Positions 28,187 through 57,599 of a stretch of 64,000 nt of DNA are shown here, one piece after another. This DNA comes from an uncultured Planctomycetales bacterium (GTDB taxonomy: Bacteria; Omnitrophota; Gorgyraeia; Zapsychrales; JANLHA01). A program made the position numbers and the translations under genes. Every line of letters begins with the position of its first letter. Positions within the stretch are counted from its first letter, which is position 1. Below the pieces are notes generated by a model. That model was not told the DNA's origin. It saw nothing but the letters and a program-made list of their open reading frames with translations, and ran no database searches. The DNA lies in NCBI GenBank assembly GCA_964450385.1, contig CAYVEC010000002.1:65262-129261 (forward strand), in the 5' to 3' direction.

Positions 28187-29152
28187 TCAGCCGACGAGCA
28201 GGGGCTGTAATATGTTCAACAGATAGCCCATTAAAATAATATAGAGTGTCACCAGCCCGAAAAAGATCCCGATCAACTTCAGCCTCATGGCCCGGCGTAA
28301 TAAAATCGCCTCAGGCAGACTGAGCGCCGACGTCGCCATCATAAAGGCCATCGCCGTCCCGAGAGGCACCCCTTTTTGGAAGAGGACCATGGCGACCGGG
28401 ACAATCGAGGCGCAGCCTCCGTACATCGGGACCCCGATGAGGACCGACAACGGCACGGCAAAAAATCCCGTGGACTCCACAATGGACTGAATCGTCTCCC
28501 GGGGAACATAATTATGAATAACGGCTCCAATGCCAACCCCGACCAGGACCCACTTCCAGATCTTGTGAAGAATAGCAAGCGACTCGCTCACCCCAAAACG
28601 CACCCGGTCAATAAACGAACGGAATTGCGGTCCGTCGTCGGCCGCGCCCGAGGCCACCATGTCCTCTTCGAGCATAGCCTCAAGCCTCATCTTTCCGATA
28701 AGATGTCCAACCACGGCGCCGACCAAAACACCAAAGACGACATAGACGATCGTAATCTTCCAGCCAAAGTACATCAGCATGAGCACGACCAAGTACTCAT
28801 TGATAATAGGCGATGTGGCCAAAAAGGAAAAGGTGACCCCAAGGGGAACCCCTCCTTTAATAAACCCCAAAAAGATCGGGATCGAGGAACACGAACAAAA
28901 CGGCGTCACCGCGCCAAACACGGCTGCTGCGAGATTGCCAACAAAGCCCCGGCCCGCAAGCCACTTTTTCACGGTCTCCTGAGGCAGAAACGACCGGATG
29001 AACCCGATGAAGGAGATCATCACAAAAAGCAGGATAACAATCTTCGCGGAATCATAAACGAAAAAATGCGCCATCCCCGACACATGGGTATCGTGGGGAA
29101 GACGCAAAACATCATAGATGATCCAATCGGCGATCTTTAACAGCATCCGCAA
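28187..29152 (-). CDS. ArsP/DUF318-family permease (COG0701)
   Basis: Signature TPFCSCSSIPIF and a second repeat half with a ~8-10 TM topology. Confidence 0.75.
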   Translation of the reverse strand: MRMLLKIADWIIYDVLRLPHDTHVSGMAHFFVYDSAKIVILLFVMISFIGFIRSFLPQETVKKWLAGRGFVGNLAAAVFGAVTPFCSCSSIPIFLGFIKGGVPLGVTFSFLATSPIINEYLVVLMLMYFGWKITIVYVVFGVLVGAVVGHLIGKMRLEAMLEEDMVASGAADDGPQFRSFIDRVRFGVSESLAILHKIWKWVLVGVGIGAVIHNYVPRETIQSIVESTGFFAVPLSVLIGVPMYGGCASIVPVAMVLFQKGVPLGTAMAFMMATSALSLPEAILLRRAMRLKLIGIFFGLVTLYIILMGYLLNILQPLLVG

Positions 29153-29307
29153 TCCCTCTCATCAGATTGTTTTTTCTGCGGTTCTTGTTTTGGCCCGCAG
29201 CAGCAGGACGACTCATCGGCCTGTTGTTTCATTTTTTTATCCAACTTCTCCATGAAGTTTCCCCAAAAACCTTTTTTTGAACCGCCTCCGCAACATTGGT
29301 CTCCCAT
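29137..29307 (-). CDS. Unannotated 56-aa cysteine-rich mini-protein (MGDQCCGGGSKKGFWGNFMEKLDKKMKQQADESSCCCGPKQEPQKKQSDERDCGCC), translationally coupled to the permease
   Basis: Translated by hand from the minus strand. SD-like GGAGAGG lies ~6 nt before the ATG. The stop overlaps the permease start by ~16 nt. The peptide has 9 Cys in 56 aa. It is below the 60-aa cutoff of the ORF track. Confidence 0.5.
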   Translation of the reverse strand: MGDQCCGGGSKKGFWGNFMEKLDKKMKQQADESSCCCGPKQEPQKKQSDERDCGCC

Positions 29308-37143: not shown

Positions 37144-37533
37144 ATGAACACAAAACCACGAGAATACCGACGGATCAACGAGAACGGAACGATTTATTAT
37201 GGAAAGCATCTCATTGTCACCGCGCGCGGATGCAATGAGAGCCTCTTAGACAAGGCTGCGATCGCCAAGTTCATGACCACCCTCGTCAAACGGATCGACA
37301 TGGTCGCCTTTGGCGATCCGATCGTCGAGCGTTTCGGCGGCGGCGTGGAAGTCGGTATCTCGGCCGTCCAATTAATCGAAACCAGCGCCATCGTCATCCA
37401 TACCAACGACCAGGCACGCGACATGTACCTCGATGTCTTCAGCTGCAAAACCTTCTCGGAGGACGCGGCTATCGAGTTCGTGAAAGAAAACTTCAGTCCA
37501 ACCTCCATCAACCACCAGGTGCTCATGAGATGA
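37144..37533 (+). CDS. S-adenosylmethionine decarboxylase proenzyme-like (SpeH/AdoMetDC small form)
   Basis: VQLIETSAIVIHTNDQ...DVFSCKTF matches the AdoMetDC (L)IAESHISIHTWPE...DVFTCG core, including the processing-Ser context ETS. Confidence 0.6.
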   Translation: MNTKPREYRRINENGTIYYGKHLIVTARGCNESLLDKAAIAKFMTTLVKRIDMVAFGDPIVERFGGGVEVGISAVQLIETSAIVIHTNDQARDMYLDVFSCKTFSEDAAIEFVKENFSPTSINHQVLMR

Positions 37534-37994
37534 ACAGATTCTATCCCAAATTCGTTCCAGAATTTCCGTACGAGCCGTCTCCGGAAAAATTCAAGATCGG
37601 CAGGATCAGTAAAGCCGTCGGTTCCGGCGTCATTTCAAAGGCAGCGTTCAAAAAGGGTGAGATCGTTTTCGGTTTTACAGGTTTCACGATCGACTTCATC
37701 ACCCAGTTCTCATTGCAGTACGGCAAGAACATGAACATCCATGATCCGTTCTTCATGGGCAAGGTCCTCCATTCATGCGACCCGAACACATCGTGTGATA
37801 TGCAGCGCCGGATCTTCATTGCCCGGCGGGATATCCATCCCGGAGAGCTCGTCACCATGGACTATGAACAGACCGAGGACGTGCTCTTTAAGCCCTTCCT
37901 CTGCCAGTGCGGAGCGGGCAACTGCCGAAAGATCATCCAGGGCAAGGCGATGGTCGCCGATGCCATGCGTAAATCTATGCGTAAGGTCGCCTGA
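37530..37994 (+). CDS. SET-domain protein lysine methyltransferase (small bacterial/viral-type SET)
   Basis: LHSCDPN (NHSCxPN), ELVTMDYE (catalytic Tyr) and post-SET CQCGAGNCR. The ATGA start overlaps the upstream gene. Confidence 0.75.
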   Translation: MNRFYPKFVPEFPYEPSPEKFKIGRISKAVGSGVISKAAFKKGEIVFGFTGFTIDFITQFSLQYGKNMNIHDPFFMGKVLHSCDPNTSCDMQRRIFIARRDIHPGELVTMDYEQTEDVLFKPFLCQCGAGNCRKIIQGKAMVADAMRKSMRKVA

Positions 37995-38051
37995 TCAGGC
38001 GTGATAACAAGAATGATTGACGGGGGCTGCAGCTAATGCAGCCTCCCTTTT

Positions 38052-39389
38052 TTATGCGATACCAAGACGCCGAAAAAAACGCCGGCGACGCGACCGGGAT
38101 GGATTAAAATACCCGCACAGGGTCGCTGGAAACTCGCGGTGAACCATCCGAATGTGCTCGGCCAGTCCCAAAGGCAGCCTCCGGCCGGATTCAAAGCCGA
38201 TAGCCCGGAGATAGCCGAGGGGATCAAAATTCATGTTGCGCCATTGAATCATGTCAACAGATCCTGTCCGAAGCAGCCGGCGAAGGGCGCGGGTCTCACC
38301 AGCGGAATCCGTGACCCCCGGGGCCACAAGATAATTGATCGAGACAAATCCCCTGCAGCGCTTGGCTATCCGAATCGAGGCCATCACATCCGCAAAAGAA
38401 TATCCTTTCGGACGGTAATAGCGCTCATAATACTCTGGCTGAAGACTATTGAGACTCACCCGCACACTGTCCAACCCGGCCTCAAAGAGTGCGCGGATCG
38501 CCTCGGGCCGGCTCGCGTTCGTATTGAGATTGATCACCCCGCGCCGGGTCGCCCGGCGGATCAGCCGAACAGACTCGATCAGAATATCAGCGACGTTCAA
38601 GGGTTCGCCCTCACACCCCTGACCAAAACTTACTACCGGATCCCGGGTAGCCCGGATATGCGTAAGCGCGGTCTCGGCCACCTCTTCGGGTGTCGGTACA
38701 AAGGCGATCCGAGGCTGAGTCACCGGGCACTCTCCATCGGGTTGATACGAAATGCAGCCGACGCAGCGGGCATTACACGTCGGCGATGTCGGGAGCGGGG
38801 CCTCGTATCTTTTTAGAAAAAAATTCCTGGCCGCCGGGCAGCCGTTGACACAGGCGCAGGTCTCAAGATGGCGCATGAGACGATTTTCGGGAAATCGTTT
38901 CTGGTACTCGCGGATGGTTTGTTTCATGAGATCGAGGTCCATCAGCCGGGGATCCTGCCTGAGCTCCCGGTCCACCCGGATCGCGGCAGCATAAAATTCA
39001 CCGCGGAAAAACGCCACGGCCCCATAGGCAAACATCGGCAGCAGGCGGGCGCTCGGACGCTCCTCAAACGCGGCATGATAGCTGGCAGTATACCCCGGGG
39101 CCAAAAAAGCAGCAACCGGATAGACCGGGCCGCTGATCCCCTCCAGGGGGCTCGTGTCGATCCGGCACAACCGCCGGTTCTCCAAATCACAGGCGATCGC
39201 TAACCGGTCCGGGAGCATATAGAGCGCACTGCACGCCGGAAGCCTGACGCAGTCCTCTCGCGTCAAGGGGACATACTGACCCCCGGCCATCCCCACGGCC
39301 TGTAAAAAAGGCACATTAACGATCCGGCCCTGGCCGTCGCTCACAACGAGTTGTGGATATTGTTCTGCCATCAGGTCCCCTAAAGACAA
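38052..39389 (-). CDS. Radical SAM enzyme with ~200-aa N-terminal extension of unknown function
   Basis: CNARCVGC (CxxxCxxC). No C-terminal SPASM cysteine cluster was seen. Confidence 0.7.
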   Translation of the reverse strand: MSLGDLMAEQYPQLVVSDGQGRIVNVPFLQAVGMAGGQYVPLTREDCVRLPACSALYMLPDRLAIACDLENRRLCRIDTSPLEGISGPVYPVAAFLAPGYTASYHAAFEERPSARLLPMFAYGAVAFFRGEFYAAAIRVDRELRQDPRLMDLDLMKQTIREYQKRFPENRLMRHLETCACVNGCPAARNFFLKRYEAPLPTSPTCNARCVGCISYQPDGECPVTQPRIAFVPTPEEVAETALTHIRATRDPVVSFGQGCEGEPLNVADILIESVRLIRRATRRGVINLNTNASRPEAIRALFEAGLDSVRVSLNSLQPEYYERYYRPKGYSFADVMASIRIAKRCRGFVSINYLVAPGVTDSAGETRALRRLLRTGSVDMIQWRNMNFDPLGYLRAIGFESGRRLPLGLAEHIRMVHREFPATLCGYFNPSRSRRRRFFRRLGIA

Positions 39390-39438
39390 CGGCAGCTGCG
39401 CTAGGCGCAGCTGCCGCGACTGACCCCATAAATCCCGA

Positions 39439-39522
39439 CTACTTCTTCTTGCTTCCGCAGCAGCAGCAACTCGTTTTTGCTGCCTTCTTCACCGGCTTCT
39501 TCGCCGCTTTTTTTGTAACCAT
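39439..39522 (-). CDS. Unannotated 27-aa Lys-rich peptide ending in four consecutive Cys (MVTKKAAKKPVKKAAKTSCCCCGSKKK), 49 nt upstream of the radical SAM gene
   Basis: Hand translation of the minus strand. SD-like AAGGGGG lies ~5 nt before the ATG. Co-oriented with the radical SAM gene and directly upstream of it. Confidence 0.35.
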   Translation of the reverse strand: MVTKKAAKKPVKKAAKTSCCCCGSKKK

Positions 39523-39614
39523 CCCCGCCCCCTTTGTTCACCGCCGTTAATCCGACCGGTCACGATGACCGGTCTTCATCAGATATCCTCCGCGTCGCAT
39601 TCAACGAACAACGC

Positions 39615-40046
39615 CTACTTCGCTTTAATGATCTTGATCCTCGTATACCCTCGTTCGGCGAGCAGCGCCGATGTTGTTTTCAAAGAGGCATTCATCATCC
39701 ACGGCTTGACCTCCATCAGTTTGACAAGGGTCTTTCGCCCATGCTCATCAAAAAAAGAAATATACGTCCCCGAGACCGGACGATCACTGAAGGCCCCCTG
39801 ATACAACGCGTCATTTTTCGGTCCCCAGGCGCAATCATCATGCGCGAAACGCCATTCCTCCGTCAGATTCTTCTTTCTTCCGTCGAGGAGCGCCTCACAG
39901 GCATCTCGATCATGGGTCAGTGTGATCATCACCAAAAAATTCTTCCTGGGAGATTTATAGATCGTCGTGGCATACCAGTTCGCGGCCAACGCGGCGTCAC
40001 ACAACCCAAGAAGCCCAACACACACGAGACAAAAAATTCGGCGCAT
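39615..40046 (-). CDS. Hypothetical secreted protein (signal peptide; two Cys pairs)
   Basis: N-terminal LLGLCDAALA signal. No known motif. Confidence 0.4.
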   Translation of the reverse strand: MRRIFCLVCVGLLGLCDAALAANWYATTIYKSPRKNFLVMITLTHDRDACEALLDGRKKNLTEEWRFAHDDCAWGPKNDALYQGAFSDRPVSGTYISFFDEHGRKTLVKLMEVKPWMMNASLKTTSALLAERGYTRIKIIKAK

Positions 40047-40128: not shown

Positions 40129-43100
40129 TCATTTCGTCTTCCCCTCGGCCAGGACGCCCCCGAACCCGTCAAAGGGAACGACCCTGATGATCACGGGGGC
40201 CAGCCCGGTCAGCGGGCGCGACAACGAGTCCTTCCAATTCATAAGATCGATCGCCTGCCCTTCCGTTTCGTCGATAGCGACATCGGTCATGTCAAAGTCA
40301 ATCCCGCCGACGTCTCGTGCCTGAGACGCGTCGGCTCGGGCCGATCGGTCAACCGGGGCCGGATCACCAAAAAAATATCTCTGAACGTCTTCATAGAGCA
40401 TTGTCTTAAGAACTATCTCATCAAAGGCACGCCAGACTTGGCGGGTATCCGTGCCCGTATGATTCTGTGACAACCACAATGAAACGTCTTTGAGCCAACG
40501 TTGATACTGAACAGGCCTTGCGACAAGATGAAAGGCATTCAACAGGCCAAGCACCTGATCCATGTCTCCCACCTCAAGATTGCTCGATGCATCAGCAGGG
40601 TTTTTCTTGCTCACAAGATCCTGTGAATCAATGGTGCGTATCTCTCCTCGGGCGGTTATGATAAGATTCGACAGCCGCAGATTTTGATGGGCAAACCCGT
40701 AGCGCCCCTCAGCATAGCGCAGGCGTTTAATAAATTCTCCCAACGCCATGACAGCCCCTGGCTCACCCAAACCGGCCACATCACCAAGCCCCCTGATTCC
40801 CTTCTCCCGATCGACAAGAAAATGGGGACTCAGCCGATAATCCGCTCCAAGGGATTCACGGTTTTTCAGCTGCGAAAAAAGACTCATCACCAGAGGGTCA
40901 TCCGAGATGTCGTTAAAAAATTCATCCAGTCGGTCCCCAGGCCGACCCTCTGCGCTCGATAGACCGTGTCCCATGACCACAAAGACGCGCTCAGGCTCGC
41001 GATCCTGGCCATCAAAAAATAATACAGCCGTAAAAATAGAGTCAAATAAGTTCTCTACTCTTCCGGTAACAAAAAGTCTTCGGCCGTCCGGATACTCCAA
41101 GACCGGGGTCTCGCCATTCATCAGGCCGCGACGCAGGGCCTCCTCTATATCCCCACCGGTCCACTCATATCTCATCGGATTTCTCGGCACACCGTCAGAC
41201 GAAAAAAACTCGCCCTCTTCCCGGGCCTCAATCTCGATCAACGACGGCGTCGCCCCCGCCATCATCTGATCAAGAAGGCTGTCCCCCTTGCGCCGCTGCC
41301 ATCGCACGCCCGTCCCGAACTGCGGATCCCATTCAAACCCTGAGCCCGTCACGCCAAACGTCCGACTATCAATGCCCGCGCGACGAAAGATCTGGTGAAT
41401 CTGGCCCTGAGGCCACGCGGCCGACTGAAAATAATCGGTCGTCCCTATATAAAAACCGGCCTCATCATCGATCATATCAAGGACATCGCGCACATCCATC
41501 AGCGCCTCAGGTAAACGGGTCGAATCAAACACGACATTGTCAAAACGATGCGAGATCCCCAGGTGACTAAAGGCCAGATCGGCCTTGTCCGTTCCCATCT
41601 CACGTAAAACCGCCTTAAGATTCACGACAAAGGACTCCTTGTCGTCCCAAATAAAAAACACATTCGATTCAGTCGTCCGAATCCATTCCGGGAAGAAATC
41701 CCTGCTATATCCCACAAAAAACAGATTCCTCACCCCCTGCCGCCGATAATGTTCTCCGAGCTCCTTCAGCCCTATCCCGGCCCCGCACCCCAAATCAACA
41801 ATGACAATCGGGTCCGCCTCGTCAACCCTCTTTTGAATCCGCTCATCGATCAACGCCCGAACAGGAATAATACGCTCAATGTCCTCAAGCCGCGTATGCG
41901 TTTCCTGCCATTCCGTCGTATCCTCATGCCTAAAAACGACACCCCCCGTATGATCCCGCTCAATGGTCATAACCCCGTCCGGACGGAGATCCTCTCCGGT
42001 GATCGGTACGGTTGTAAACAGCTTACTTCCGTTGACCTCTATTCGTTGAGGCTCAGTGAGCATCGCCTGATCTGCCACCGTTAAATTGAGCCGATATTCA
42101 TTCGCGAGATATCCGTCCAGAACAACCTCCTCAAAAGCATCCCAGTAGTCCGCAAGGGTCCCGGTCCTCCCCTGACGCGCGACCCACTCGCGCATCTCAT
42201 CCTTCCAGGACTCCGGGACCGGATCAGTCAGCATCTCCTGATCGCCGAGAATGTCGATGAGCGATCCAAAATCGCTCATCATGTCATCGGGGTCCCAATA
42301 CTCAAAGGCATGAGATGTGACGCGGCTTCCCTGCATGAGCGCGATCTCATTCCAGTCAATAAGACGCAGTCCTCGGCGGGGATCAACCATAATATTGCGA
42401 GGAAGCAGGTCCCCATGGATAAACCCGAACCGGCGCTGGGCATCACGAAGACGGTGAATAAATTCAATTACCTGCGTTCGCATCGCACGAGATGACCCCC
42501 TCCGCTCAAGCGATTCACCAGAGGCCTGGTCGAGGATAAAATGCCGCGCCAGACGATAGTCCTCCTCGATTGTCTGAAGATTAGCCGGCGCAGCGAAAAA
42601 ATCCCGAGTCGCCGGATCGGCCTGGACGGCTTGGAAGAATTCTTTTAACCGCCTCAGGCGCGCGCCCATCCGCTGAGACGGCGCCTCCATCGCTGCAACG
42701 ATGAACTTCACCACAACGTCCTTCGGCGCCGCAGGATGTCGAGGATCCGTCAGCCGCCCCCGGAAAACTTCCGCGGCCCAAGAATTCGTGATGCCCTCAA
42801 TGATCTCGAGACGCCTGCCGTCTGGATACTTGAGCACCGGACGACGACCATTTTTTAACCCGTCCCGAAGCTGATCGCACAAAGAAACGGCATTGTGATC
42901 CCATGCCACCGGCATCGTCGGCTTAACAGTGAGCCGAACGCTGCTCAGCCCCCCTTCTAATTGTTTGAACAAAAGCGGGTCCTTGGTCACCCGAACCATC
43001 GTCACCGTCATCCCTTCCGCCTCGAACAATCGAGGGTCGACATTGTTTTGTTCGAGATGCGATAAGGGAAACAGCCATAATCCCGCGCCGTCATCAAACA

Positions 43101-44832
43101 CGTCTAAGATGTCATGCCGTATATACCCAATGACATCCTGTTGACCAGACGCCTTCCCGCGACTGCTAAAAAGATGGGTGATGCCCAAGTGGCTAAATCC
43201 CAAGCTGACCTTTTCTGCCCCGATCACGTCAAGAATCCGACGGAGTAAAATATTGAAATGCTCCTTCTGATCCCAGATCAAAAAGACATTCGGCCGCGTC
43301 CCCTCACCCCACTGCCGCGGCATGTCCGCCCCATAACCAATAAAAAAAAGATTCTTCCGATCCTCATATCGCGCGGCGAGCTCCTTCAGGGTCCGGCCGC
43401 TGCCGCATCCCCAGTCAAGAATCACGATCGGCTTTTCAGGTTCAGAAGAGGCCTCACGATCAGCGATGAGGGCGTCAATCTTACGCGTAATATCCAAATG
43501 ACCATCAACCGCCGCGAGTGACGAATTCATGACCGGCCATGGAGACTCCTCGCTAGTCTCCAAGTACGGCTCGGAACCAACGCCGTCCCGCAGACTGACA
43601 AACCCGTGATTGCGCCACAATGCCGCCAAGAACTGATCGCTCAGTTCCGTTCGGGTCGTATAGATCGTCTGCCCCTGAAAATCGACGTTTCTGACCTCAA
43701 CACCAGCAGCCATCCGTGTATGGGCTACTGTGCCCGAACCCTGCCCCATGGGCCGGACCATCGTATCGATCTTTACCCACCTGGCATCTGGACCGACGGC
43801 AGACCGCAGGTCGTTTTGCGTTCCATCCTCGGTGAGCATCGCCATGTCCATCGCGACCCCGCCGGAAAAATATTTGCGGGGCACCACCTCCCCGCGTTCG
43901 GCGTCATACTCCTCACGAATAAGACTGTAGACCCCCTCGCGCAACGCCTCAAGATATCCCTCATAGATCTTTGTCGTATCCTCATCATCCGTGAACTGAA
44001 CACCCGCCACCAATCCCTGATCAACATACCGCGCCCCGAGGATCCCCTGACGGAGATGCCGTTTATACCAGGCCGCCAGAATCAAGGCGTGATAGATCTG
44101 TCTCAGTCGGCGAAAACGCGGGCCCTCATTCACCTCGTGCTCAAGCGCCGGGACAAGGACGTCGCGCAAGACCGTCCCTCTCCCTGAGTGATCCGCAGAC
44201 ACGCCTTCTGATCCCGGCTTCGTCTTCCCACGATACTCTCCATCCATCATGACGCGGAGCCGGGCCCGGGTCACAAAGACCCGCGGCCCGTCGACATAGA
44301 CCTGCGCCTCGGCGGGAACGATCCAGACCTTGGGGGTCACTTGATCGGCGCCCTGTTCTGCTGCGAGCCCAGCCTGCCCGAGCGCCGTCCAAAAACGGCG
44401 GCCGGTCTCCTCCTCCGGGTGAAGCAGGGAGGCGCTCACGTGTTTGAGCACATAATCCTCCGCGAGCATGTCCCGCCCCATCTCTGTATCGCCAAAGGCG
44501 TCCGCGATGATCCGGTCCGGCTCATCCGGAGAGAGATTGACCCACATGTCTTTTTCCGGAATGGTTAACGCGGCTAGAAAATATTTAATCAACCGCGCAG
44601 AGTCATCCGTGACCTGGGCCTCATCACCTGTGGCCTCTCCGGGATCGAGAATAAATTGAAAATGAAGGGGATTGTCCGCATCGAGTTCGATGCCGCGCAG
44701 CATCATCGGCTGAGACGCCACAGGAGATCCCGGCGCCCAAAGAGGGGCCTCAGCCCATCCGACCGAAGCGAGGACCAAGGCAAAACAAACAAAAAAAGGC
44801 AAATAAAAACGAATTTTTGTGATTTTCATCAT
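40129..44832 (-). CDS. Giant (1567 aa) signal-peptide-bearing protein with two tandem modules, each a class-I SAM-methyltransferase-like domain followed by an APH/choline-kinase-like phosphotransferase fold; the second kinase-like domain is degenerate
   Basis: Signal peptide ...SVGWAEA. MTase motif I appears twice (IVILDWGCGSGRTL at ~aa 480; IVIVDLGCGAGIGL at ~aa 1010). APH-like catalytic region IHGDLLPRNIMV...LIDWNE is present in module 1. Module 2 reads FAHQNLRLSNLII...TIDSQD. Internal repeat PVLKYPDGRRL / PVLEYPDGRRL. Confidence 0.6.
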   Translation of the reverse strand: MMKITKIRFYLPFFVCFALVLASVGWAEAPLWAPGSPVASQPMMLRGIELDADNPLHFQFILDPGEATGDEAQVTDDSARLIKYFLAALTIPEKDMWVNLSPDEPDRIIADAFGDTEMGRDMLAEDYVLKHVSASLLHPEEETGRRFWTALGQAGLAAEQGADQVTPKVWIVPAEAQVYVDGPRVFVTRARLRVMMDGEYRGKTKPGSEGVSADHSGRGTVLRDVLVPALEHEVNEGPRFRRLRQIYHALILAAWYKRHLRQGILGARYVDQGLVAGVQFTDDEDTTKIYEGYLEALREGVYSLIREEYDAERGEVVPRKYFSGGVAMDMAMLTEDGTQNDLRSAVGPDARWVKIDTMVRPMGQGSGTVAHTRMAAGVEVRNVDFQGQTIYTTRTELSDQFLAALWRNHGFVSLRDGVGSEPYLETSEESPWPVMNSSLAAVDGHLDITRKIDALIADREASSEPEKPIVILDWGCGSGRTLKELAARYEDRKNLFFIGYGADMPRQWGEGTRPNVFLIWDQKEHFNILLRRILDVIGAEKVSLGFSHLGITHLFSSRGKASGQQDVIGYIRHDILDVFDDGAGLWLFPLSHLEQNNVDPRLFEAEGMTVTMVRVTKDPLLFKQLEGGLSSVRLTVKPTMPVAWDHNAVSLCDQLRDGLKNGRRPVLKYPDGRRLEIIEGITNSWAAEVFRGRLTDPRHPAAPKDVVVKFIVAAMEAPSQRMGARLRRLKEFFQAVQADPATRDFFAAPANLQTIEEDYRLARHFILDQASGESLERRGSSRAMRTQVIEFIHRLRDAQRRFGFIHGDLLPRNIMVDPRRGLRLIDWNEIALMQGSRVTSHAFEYWDPDDMMSDFGSLIDILGDQEMLTDPVPESWKDEMREWVARQGRTGTLADYWDAFEEVVLDGYLANEYRLNLTVADQAMLTEPQRIEVNGSKLFTTVPITGEDLRPDGVMTIERDHTGGVVFRHEDTTEWQETHTRLEDIERIIPVRALIDERIQKRVDEADPIVIVDLGCGAGIGLKELGEHYRRQGVRNLFFVGYSRDFFPEWIRTTESNVFFIWDDKESFVVNLKAVLREMGTDKADLAFSHLGISHRFDNVVFDSTRLPEALMDVRDVLDMIDDEAGFYIGTTDYFQSAAWPQGQIHQIFRRAGIDSRTFGVTGSGFEWDPQFGTGVRWQRRKGDSLLDQMMAGATPSLIEIEAREEGEFFSSDGVPRNPMRYEWTGGDIEEALRRGLMNGETPVLEYPDGRRLFVTGRVENLFDSIFTAVLFFDGQDREPERVFVVMGHGLSSAEGRPGDRLDEFFNDISDDPLVMSLFSQLKNRESLGADYRLSPHFLVDREKGIRGLGDVAGLGEPGAVMALGEFIKRLRYAEGRYGFAHQNLRLSNLIITARGEIRTIDSQDLVSKKNPADASSNLEVGDMDQVLGLLNAFHLVARPVQYQRWLKDVSLWLSQNHTGTDTRQVWRAFDEIVLKTMLYEDVQRYFFGDPAPVDRSARADASQARDVGGIDFDMTDVAIDETEGQAIDLMNWKDSLSRPLTGLAPVIIRVVPFDGFGGVLAEGKTK

Positions 44833-57426: not shown

Positions 57427-57599
57427 ATGCTCTCCCTTAATACACATATTGTTTTCCCCCTCAATACTGCTGTTGAATAGTCCTACTTCTTTTCCTTTTT
57501 CGGCTTCTTCTTTTCCTTCTTTCGCGGACTCTTGTCTCCCATCTTCCTCCACCCTCCTTTCCCTAAGGTTTTCTTCCCGTGCTTCTTAAAAACATCCGC

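Follow-up and report, generated by a model that had tools for sequence, protein, structure and literature searches.

On the minus strand of a 64,000-nucleotide stretch of contig CAYVEC010000002.1 (the window; assembly GCA_964450385.1, positions 65,262 to 129,261), from an uncultured Planctomycetales bacterium placed by GTDB in Omnitrophota, a 27-codon open reading frame (ORF) precedes a radical SAM (rSAM) gene. We conclude that this small ORF is very probably not noise; a micro-protein confined to the lineage, or else a regulatory leader, is the likeliest explanation. Tentatively, we favour the reading that it encodes a translated, lineage-specific, stand-alone polycationic, thiol/metal-binding peptide that is not a substrate of the neighbouring enzyme. 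The original prediction, made from the letters of the sequence, had picked out an unannotated Lys-rich peptide with four consecutive Cys and proposed it as either an rSAM substrate or a metal-binding tail. The metal-binding tail stays viable as a candidate function and forms part of our preferred reading.

The small ORF reads ATG GTT ACA AAA AAA GCG GCG AAG AAG CCG GTG AAG AAG GCA GCA AAA ACG AGT TGC TGC TGC TGC GGA AGC AAG AAG AAG TAG, and since an in-frame TGA lies 5 codons 5′ of the ATG, the frame cannot be extended upstream. Its strand, length and four consecutive Cys are as predicted (Table 1); the product is indeed very basic, with the Lys count corrected to 10 of 27. The Shine-Dalgarno (SD)-like element also lies where the prediction had put it, about 5 nucleotides (nt) upstream. 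Its predicted anti-SD duplex, at −9.1 kcal/mol, is among the strongest 3% for the window's 372 small ATG ORFs and exceeds that of the rSAM gene (−6.1 kcal/mol). The exact peptide is absent from a collection of 15 billion proteins and is therefore unannotated, as had been claimed.

Two compositional features distinguish the encoded peptide. The Cys run had been described as very non-random: the 64 kb contain a single TGYTGYTGYTGY where 0.05 would be expected, and 5 of 100 shuffles contain at least one. The only run of four TGY codons in the 64 kb is positioned in the Cys frame of the small ORF, at codons 19–22. Ahead of it, codons 4–15 consist of three 12-nt units, AAAAAAGCGGCG, AAGAAGCCGGTG and AAGAAGGCAGCA, encoding KKAA, KKPV and KKAA. 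Four differences separate the first unit from the third, all of them synonymous and at third codon positions; only 1 of 495 placements of four changes within 12 nt confines them to third positions. These differences follow the pattern that would be expected under selection on the peptide in this frame. The KKxx periodicity gives a helical hydrophobic moment of 0.53, surpassed by 1.4% of shuffles (p about 0.014). Together, the top-3% SD with ideal spacing, the synonymous-only repeats, the amphipathic periodicity and a CCxxGSKK motif shared with a second ORF of the window suggest a translated micropeptide. As a separate observation, A AAA AAA in codons 3–5 (39508–39514, minus) is a slippery heptanucleotide of the X XXY YYZ type, and the −1 frame is open for 46 codons, from GTG 39541 to TAG 39401 (minus), extending into the downstream hairpin described below and lacking an SD of its own.

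Table 1. Features around the small ORF and similar micro-ORFs. Positions count from the first letter of the window.
Feature	Position	Strand	Basis or relation
Small ORF, 27 codons, MVTKKAAKKPVKKAAKTSCCCCGSKKK, ATG to TAG	39439..39522	minus	read from sequence
SD-like AAGGGGG	39528..39534	minus	5-nt spacer to small-ORF ATG
(TGC)4, four successive Cys codons, codons 19–22	39457..39468	minus	single occurrence in window
Periodic KKAA-KKPV-KKAA-K polycationic segment, codons 4–16	39475..39513	minus	sequence
Terminator-like element: 13-bp perfect GC-rich stem GCGGCAGCTGCGC / GCGCAGCTGCCGT, 3-nt loop, TGTCTTT tail	39381..39417	minus	between small-ORF stop and rSAM gene
rSAM gene, 439 aa: all-beta N-domain, helical linker with Cys172/Cys178, CNARCVGC core	38052..39371	minus	homology, model
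9-bp hairpin, GACCGGTC palindrome, without T-run	39553..39575	minus	between 143-aa gene and small ORF
143-aa ORF, signal-peptide-like N-terminus, no family match	39615..40046	minus	upstream of small ORF
1567-aa ORF, signal-peptide-like N-terminus	40129–44832	minus	upstream of 143-aa ORF
Unannotated 56-aa Cys-rich ORF MGDQCCGGGSKKGFWGNFMEKLDKKMKQQADESSCCCGPKQEPQKKQSDERDCGCC	29137–29307	minus	strong SD AAAAGGAGAGGG
PF03773/ArsP_1 permease related to SaoE and SO_0444 Cu/Zn efflux transporters	28187–29146	minus	ATG overlapped by end of 56-aa ORF
19-aa ORF MGDKSPRKKEKKKPKKEKK	57483–57542	minus	very strong SD GGAGGGTGGAGG, −10.7 kcal/mol
Phage-type micro-ORF family, viral contigs	L201, L204, L206–L210, L212, L214, L216–L219, L221, L223
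Phage-type micro-ORF family, metagenome contigs	L084, L102, L117, L123, L125, L150, L155, L166, L190

That second ORF, 56 residues long, was one of only a few clean intergenic cases that emerged when we screened the window for micro-ORFs led by an SD and rich in Lys or Cys. It has the pattern MGDQCCGGGSKKG...SSCCCGPK...DCGCC, and its last codons overlap the start of the permease gene (ATGCTGTTAA). CCxxGSKK and S-CCC-G-x-K are common to the 56-aa ORF and the small-ORF peptide. Because different codons encode the common motif (TCA versus AGC, AAA versus AAG), the resemblance appears to lie at the protein level and points to a thiol motif with a metal context. The 56-aa product is a candidate metal-binding partner of the permease. 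We found no homologues of it, and no permease homologue near the motif matches listed in the metagenome scan described below. The 19-aa ORF, a third polycationic micro-ORF, sits directly downstream of an SSB-like gene and before a small membrane-protein ORF; it starts with MGD, like the 56-aa ORF.

The small ORF occupies the coding strand of an otherwise empty 243-nt gap between same-strand genes. A terminator-like element, unmentioned in the original prediction, starts 21 nt 3′ of its stop codon. Among the terminator-like sites of the 20 kb scanned, this hairpin (−26.7 kcal/mol) ranks first, and it forms under every ribosome-occupancy constraint tried. Genuine terminators of the window resemble it, and its U-tract is weaker than theirs. 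Its end coincides with the start of the rSAM SD, AGGGGA (39381..39376, minus); bona fide terminators elsewhere in the window lie 65–80 nt before the next gene, one with a promoter-like site. No sigma-70-like promoter was found between the genes around the small ORF. There is no room for an rSAM promoter 3′ of the hairpin, and the enzyme would therefore be expressed through read-through of the hairpin or from a promoter upstream of it. On the other side of the small ORF, the 9-bp hairpin has no T-run and probably does not terminate transcription, which makes it likely that the small ORF shares a transcript with the upstream genes: the 143-aa ORF is probably the preceding cistron, and the 1567-aa ORF probably heads the transcript. 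Rfam returned nothing meaningful in 39200–39800 at E ≤ 10, and hence no known riboswitch or leader. The 1567-aa ORF itself contains an internal tandem duplication of a module made of a methyltransferase-like GxGxG segment and an APH/kinase-like segment; the APH match is above the Pfam cut-off and the methyltransferase matches are below it.

From these directly observed features we infer translation, transcript structure and, as no homologue of the peptide was found, every functional step of the following scheme. The small ORF would follow the 1567-aa and 143-aa genes as the final small cistron of their transcript. Most transcripts would stop at the hairpin, so that the peptide is made in excess and is abundant, and read-through would supply a low level of rSAM mRNA, given that the enzyme gene has no room for its own promoter. 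Residues 3–17 (KKAA/KKPV/KKAA/K, net charge about +10) would form a cationic amphipathic or disordered segment able to bind a polyanion, for example nucleic acid or an acidic membrane. The C-terminal S-CCCC-G-S-KKK would offer four adjacent thiolates, either as ligands for soft metals or metalloids (Cu(I), Zn, Ni, Cd, As(III)) or as points at which a metal or a disulfide could link one peptide to another. As four adjacent Cys wrap a single ion poorly, the thiolate-bound form would probably be oligomeric. Clustered Cys of this kind are known elsewhere: the C-terminal tail of E. coli SlyD contains CCGG, and ArsD has vicinal Cys pairs. Such metal-binding tails and mini-metallothioneins resemble the peptide in having clustered or vicinal Cys flanked by Gly, Ser and Lys; they differ from this candidate metal binder in that it is only 27 aa long, with four contiguous Cys, no His and no sequence homology to them.

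Similar micro-ORFs recur outside the window. We scanned metagenomes with the pattern CCCCG[WSN]KK, which forces CCCCG.KK. Among the matches listed (at least 120), most were noise. The remainder included the SD-led tiny ORFs MCCCCGCKKKKKKKK, MSCCCCGTKKKPAKKKKKR, MGCCCCGTKKKAKKKAKK and MGGGCCCCGSKKTTEKKKK, all of which show TGC/TGT variation. These metagenome ORFs combine CCCCG[STC]KK with Lys/Ala/Pro-rich tails in unrelated contigs. The MCCCCGCKKKKKKKK and MSCCCCGTKKKPAKKKKKR ORFs (contigs L176, 1462–1509, and L195, about 529–588 in reverse-complement orientation; both low-GC, 28–33%) lie a few hundred nucleotides upstream of a form-III-like RuBisCO gene and beside small membrane-protein genes that look alike by eye. 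On the strength of these shared neighbours, the two micro-ORFs appear syntenic. Similar tiny ORFs stand beside an Mre11-like phosphoesterase gene (L193) and between rubrerythrin-like and inositol-monophosphatase-family genes (L191), the latter about 1.2 kb from a Cys-tRNA synthetase gene. A further set was discarded: the conserved-looking MYCCCCGCKKSKGK ORFs (MYCCCCGCKK; L131, L133, L145, L187) arise when a conserved segment of hisF, FGSQCIVVAVDAKK, is read in its +1 frame. A conserved gene can thus yield out-of-frame matches that mimic conserved micro-ORFs.

The viral scan gave a more uniform picture. Fifteen of its 23 matches are a conserved 12–14-aa micro-ORF, MSDCCCCCGCKK, of the form M[KS][ND]0-2 C4-7 G C K K stop, in marine phage contigs of low GC (31–38%). 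ATGA overlaps couple this micro-ORF translationally to the preceding and the following gene, and its Cys run differs in length and in TGC/TGT usage. It is set among small membrane-protein genes, with a small membrane or coiled-coil protein encoded next and genes for an M15-type peptidase and tail-fibre-like proteins nearby. One contig carrying it, L084, had no near match among deposited phage genomes.

These finds invite a broader proposal, which we regard as improbable: that polycysteine-polylysine micropeptides, the small-ORF peptide among them, form a polyphyletic class so far unrecognised, whose members would be protamine-like polyanion binders that can be cross-linked through thiols or metals. 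With similarly little confidence, we would count among its members the 56-aa CCGGGSKK ORF, the 15–19-aa MxCCCCG[STC]KK-polyK metagenome ORFs and the 12–14-aa MSDCCCCCGCKK ORFs of marine phages. In this Omnitrophota-like genome, the peptide could be a miniature nucleoid peptide of the H1 or protamine type, possibly Lys-methylated by a nearby SET-domain protein; DNA binding and Lys methylation are pure conjecture by analogy. Cys-containing protamines invite the same comparison. The best relatives of the window are Omnitrophota of the Planctomycetes-Verrucomicrobia-Chlamydiae (PVC) group. The H1-like proteins Hc1 and Hc2 of chlamydiae (PMC3980110) share the KKAAKKPVKKAAK composition and periodicity of the peptide, and a chlamydial SET protein methylates Hc1. 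The peptide here is far shorter than Hc1 or Hc2, and the SET gene belongs to a different unit, encoded on the other strand. The likeness is compositional only, the peptide having no Pfam or NCBIfam match to Hc1 or linker-histone models at E ≤ 0.1. The SET-domain lysine methyltransferase gene lies 1.4 kb from this H1-like, Lys-rich peptide. It encodes 154 aa (PF00856, E 1.4e-7) and joins through an ATGA overlap an AdoMet-decarboxylase-like gene (PF02675). The pair (37144–37994, plus strand) is convergent with the rSAM gene, with a bidirectional terminator in common at 38022–38046.

The rSAM gene provided a means of following the locus across genomes. Its start is ATG 39371, as judged by alignment with 22 homologues (Pro6 nearly invariant, Asp12 invariant), 67 nt 3′ of the small-ORF stop. 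The spacing of 49 nt given in the original prediction was measured to TTG 39389, an alternative start that falls within the hairpin arm. Pfam recognises only the PF04055 core (residues 194–357, E 1.8e-18), and the NCBIfam matches to MoaA, TIGR04100, NrdG and PflA are far under their cut-offs. The protein contains no SPASM/twitch domain, scoring 12–18 bits for NCBIfam SPASM families against cut-offs of 395–525. PqqD or the recognition element (RRE) of peptides made on the ribosome and modified after translation (RiPPs) gave no match in it at E ≤ 0.1, and its neighbours include no candidate recognition gene. An AlphaFold model (predicted local distance difference test score 91.8) has an all-beta N-domain at residues 7–132, a helical linker in which Cys172 and Cys178 are conserved, and the radical SAM barrel, with no additional C-terminal domain; confidence is high over the N-terminal 130 residues. 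Sequence and structure searches of the PDB returned generic radical SAM folds only, the structure matches being NifB, lipoyl synthase, HydE, PflA and MoaA.

Relatives of this enzyme are plentiful. The databases hold 6575, the best non-self match being 59% identical and the named matches mostly Candidatus Omnitrophota. A genome scan for homologues gave 595 confirmed stretches; the locus comparisons below use the 80 that were kept, whose enzymes are 43–56% identical to this one, from Omnitrophota, Desulfobacterota, Nitrospirota, metagenome-assembled genomes labelled Bacteroidota, and others. To judge from these sequences, the family is conserved (43–59% identity across phyla), broadly distributed and housekeeping-like. 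It is a large, uncharacterised family of about 435-aa proteins with a conserved E-x-C-x5-C-P-A-A-x-N linker and a VSFGQGCEGEPL motif. Its genes have no conserved partner, the best being a PrmA-like gene in 18 of the 80 loci. In none of the 80 does a frame containing a run of at least three Cys lie upstream of the rSAM gene. No conserved flanking small ORF was found either, as clustering all 20–95-aa ORFs yielded only shadow frames inside genes. None of the 38 loci inspected, all Omnitrophota ones included, has a Lys-rich small ORF within 450 nt upstream, and a comparably strong hairpin abuts the rSAM start in none of 40. On the basis of these 80, 38 and 40 loci, the small ORF and its hairpin look like a lineage-specific insertion before a conserved rSAM gene, judged against collections holding no relative closer than 59% identity.

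The locus comparisons bear most directly on the idea that the peptide is a ribosomal precursor modified by the adjacent rSAM enzyme through a thioether or other Cys cross-link, the hairpin setting a high precursor-to-enzyme ratio. We consider this very unlikely. The small ORF does adjoin the rSAM gene on the same strand, and RiPP operons, such as those of the nisin and subtilosin types, commonly place a small gene first, a leaky terminator after it and an enzyme gene last. Cys-rich precursors of SCIFF peptides and ranthipeptides set a precedent as rSAM substrates (PMC10114670), and they and sactipeptide precursors resemble the present case as small Cys-containing peptide genes beside an rSAM gene (PMC10114670, PMC8326336). 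Those systems use rSAM-SPASM maturases, whereas here the enzyme has no SPASM/twitch or PqqD-type recognition domain, its N-domain is modelled as all-beta, and its family is broadly distributed and housekeeping-like. Across the 80 loci the substrate idea finds neither a co-occurring small ORF nor a conserved partner gene. The Cys follow one another without spacing, and the peptide lacks a leader/core organisation, has none of the acceptor residues typical of sacti- and ranthipeptides and no match to an NCBIfam or Pfam precursor model. The original proposal that the peptide is the substrate of its neighbour is therefore unsupported by both domains and co-occurrence. That prediction had also named a lack of small-ORF conservation in syntenic regions as telling against it, and this is what the loci show, the closest relative being only 59% identical. 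We think it unlikely that the small ORF is a chance frame in an intergenic region with simple repeats, (TGC)4 and AAR runs, and just as unlikely that the only functional elements are RNA or DNA, namely an upstream-operon terminator and the rSAM ribosome-binding site. In favour of chance, nothing was conserved anywhere searched (rSAM loci, protein collection, plasmids); frames as long as this one are common, 13 kb containing 194 that reach 20 aa or more; an equally good SD precedes some 11 of the window's small ATG ORFs (3% of 372); and the hisF cases illustrate how out-of-frame matches mimic conservation. A chance frame leaves unexplained the coincidence of a strong, ideally spaced SD with an ATG in an intergenic coding-strand location, the placement of the sole TGY run of 64 kb in the Cys frame, the periodic KKxx repeat with third-position-only differences, and a terminator directly past the stop. 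It also leaves unexplained the two further SD-led micro-ORFs of similar composition in the window, one of them translationally coupled to a permease. Several points nevertheless weigh against our preferred reading of a stand-alone micropeptide. The peptide has no homologue: a tandem-duplicated query gave no match at E ≤ 10, plasmids searched by tblastn yielded no hit, neither NCBIfam nor Pfam matched it at E ≤ 0.1, and the loci of rSAM relatives hold no similar ORF. (TGC)4 is a pure trinucleotide repeat with a possible RNA-level or slippage origin, and we estimate that roughly 5% of gaps this large would contain, by chance, an intergenic ATG ORF with an equally good SD. Very few positions underlie the repeat and motif arguments, both of which are post hoc. 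Lastly, the metagenome examples carry their Cys run at the N-terminus, not the C-terminus, and since the search pattern forces the motif, the metagenome and viral micro-ORFs attest the existence of micro-ORFs of this kind, not a relationship to the small ORF.

A more serious rival is that the small ORF is a leader peptide without function of its own and the hairpin an attenuator of the rSAM gene. This is possible, if doubtful, as is the specific form in which ribosome progress through the Cys run, or the preceding Lys codons, decides between terminator formation and exposure of the rSAM ribosome-binding site. The layout is that of the textbooks: towards its 3′ end the short, SD-led ORF repeats one codon for a rare amino acid four times, a strong terminator-like hairpin comes just past the stop, and the rSAM SD abuts the hairpin and leaves no promoter room. 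Four RNA strands with 1:2, 2:3 and 3:4 pairings can be drawn. GGCAGCAA (39485..39478) pairs with the Cys tract, a local pairing present in the minimum-free-energy fold; the terminator 5′ arm, as long as the 3′ arm has yet to be transcribed, can take up the Cys tract together with the next GG (15 bp, about −22 kcal/mol in cis); and the two arms pair with each other. In addition, the small-ORF stop-codon region could pair with the rSAM AUG region at the hairpin base. There is also precedent in mycobacteria, where polycysteine short ORFs are proven cysteine-responsive attenuators whose Cys tract pairs with the downstream SD region until ribosome stalling lifts the block (Canestrari et al., bioRxiv 10.1101/834739). 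The small ORF shares with those of the Ms5788A/Rv0815A type an unannotated short frame with consecutive Cys codons near the 3′ end (at least two there; four TGC at codons 19–22 of 27 here), a same-strand gene directly downstream and highly structured RNA between them. Unlike the leaderless mycobacterial ORFs, which control cysteine or sulfur metabolism genes, it has a strong SD 5 nt upstream of its ATG, Lys at 10 of 27 codons, a terminator-type hairpin as the intervening structure and an uncharacterised rSAM gene downstream. Nor is its Cys tract complementary to the rSAM SD: pairing with the rSAM initiation region reaches −14.4 kcal/mol against a shuffle mean of −14.9, unlike the mycobacterial mechanism.

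The trp, his and thr leaders of enterobacteria are the classical leader-peptide transcription attenuators, and they too combine an SD-led short ORF bearing repeated codons, an intrinsic terminator directly before the structural gene and alternative 1:2, 2:3 and 3:4 pairings, the last being a possibility here. Here, by contrast, the repeated Cys codons (39468..39455) are the would-be antiterminator strand itself, strand 2 rather than strand 1. A stall on them would thus favour termination, and the geometry would not give read-through induced by Cys starvation; classical geometry fits only a stall at Lys12–Lys16. The −26.7 kcal/mol terminator wins all full-length folds, whether a ribosome is placed at the stop or over the Cys codons. 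In statistical terms the antiterminator is unremarkable: pairing of the Cys tract with the 5′ arm is matched or bettered by 2.3% of all genomic 34-mers. We had considered this complementarity striking, at 0 of 300 mononucleotide shuffles; as its significance is lost against the genomic 34-mers, we do not rely on it. Accessibility of the rSAM start site is low-ish without being an outlier (3 of 32 genes are as low), and rSAM is not recognisable as a gene of cysteine or lysine metabolism, or of amino-acid biosynthesis as in the classical cases. The 40 homologous loci have no comparable hairpin at the start, and a pure leader role does not explain KKAA repeats with synonymous-only differences. 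The leader model is a serious rival to the micropeptide, but it fails the specific tests that were run.

These results carry lessons beyond the locus. For RiPP discovery, a Cys-rich small ORF adjoining a radical SAM gene shows that adjacency is insufficient for calling a cluster. The recurrence of poly-Cys/poly-Lys micro-ORFs in unrelated genomes and marine phages makes the class testable with synthetic peptides. The novelty is modest, as Cys-rich micro-proteins and polycysteine leaders are known kinds. If the small ORF is a leader peptide, amino-acid-sensing attenuation at polycysteine (or lysine) codons would no longer be confined to Actinobacteria but would reach an uncultured lineage of the PVC group and an uncharacterised radical SAM gene. 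If, as we tentatively prefer, it is translated into a micro-protein, it would represent a gene class that annotation pipelines miss because it falls under their 90-nt calling limit, with an extreme chemistry of +10 charge and four adjacent thiols in 27 residues.

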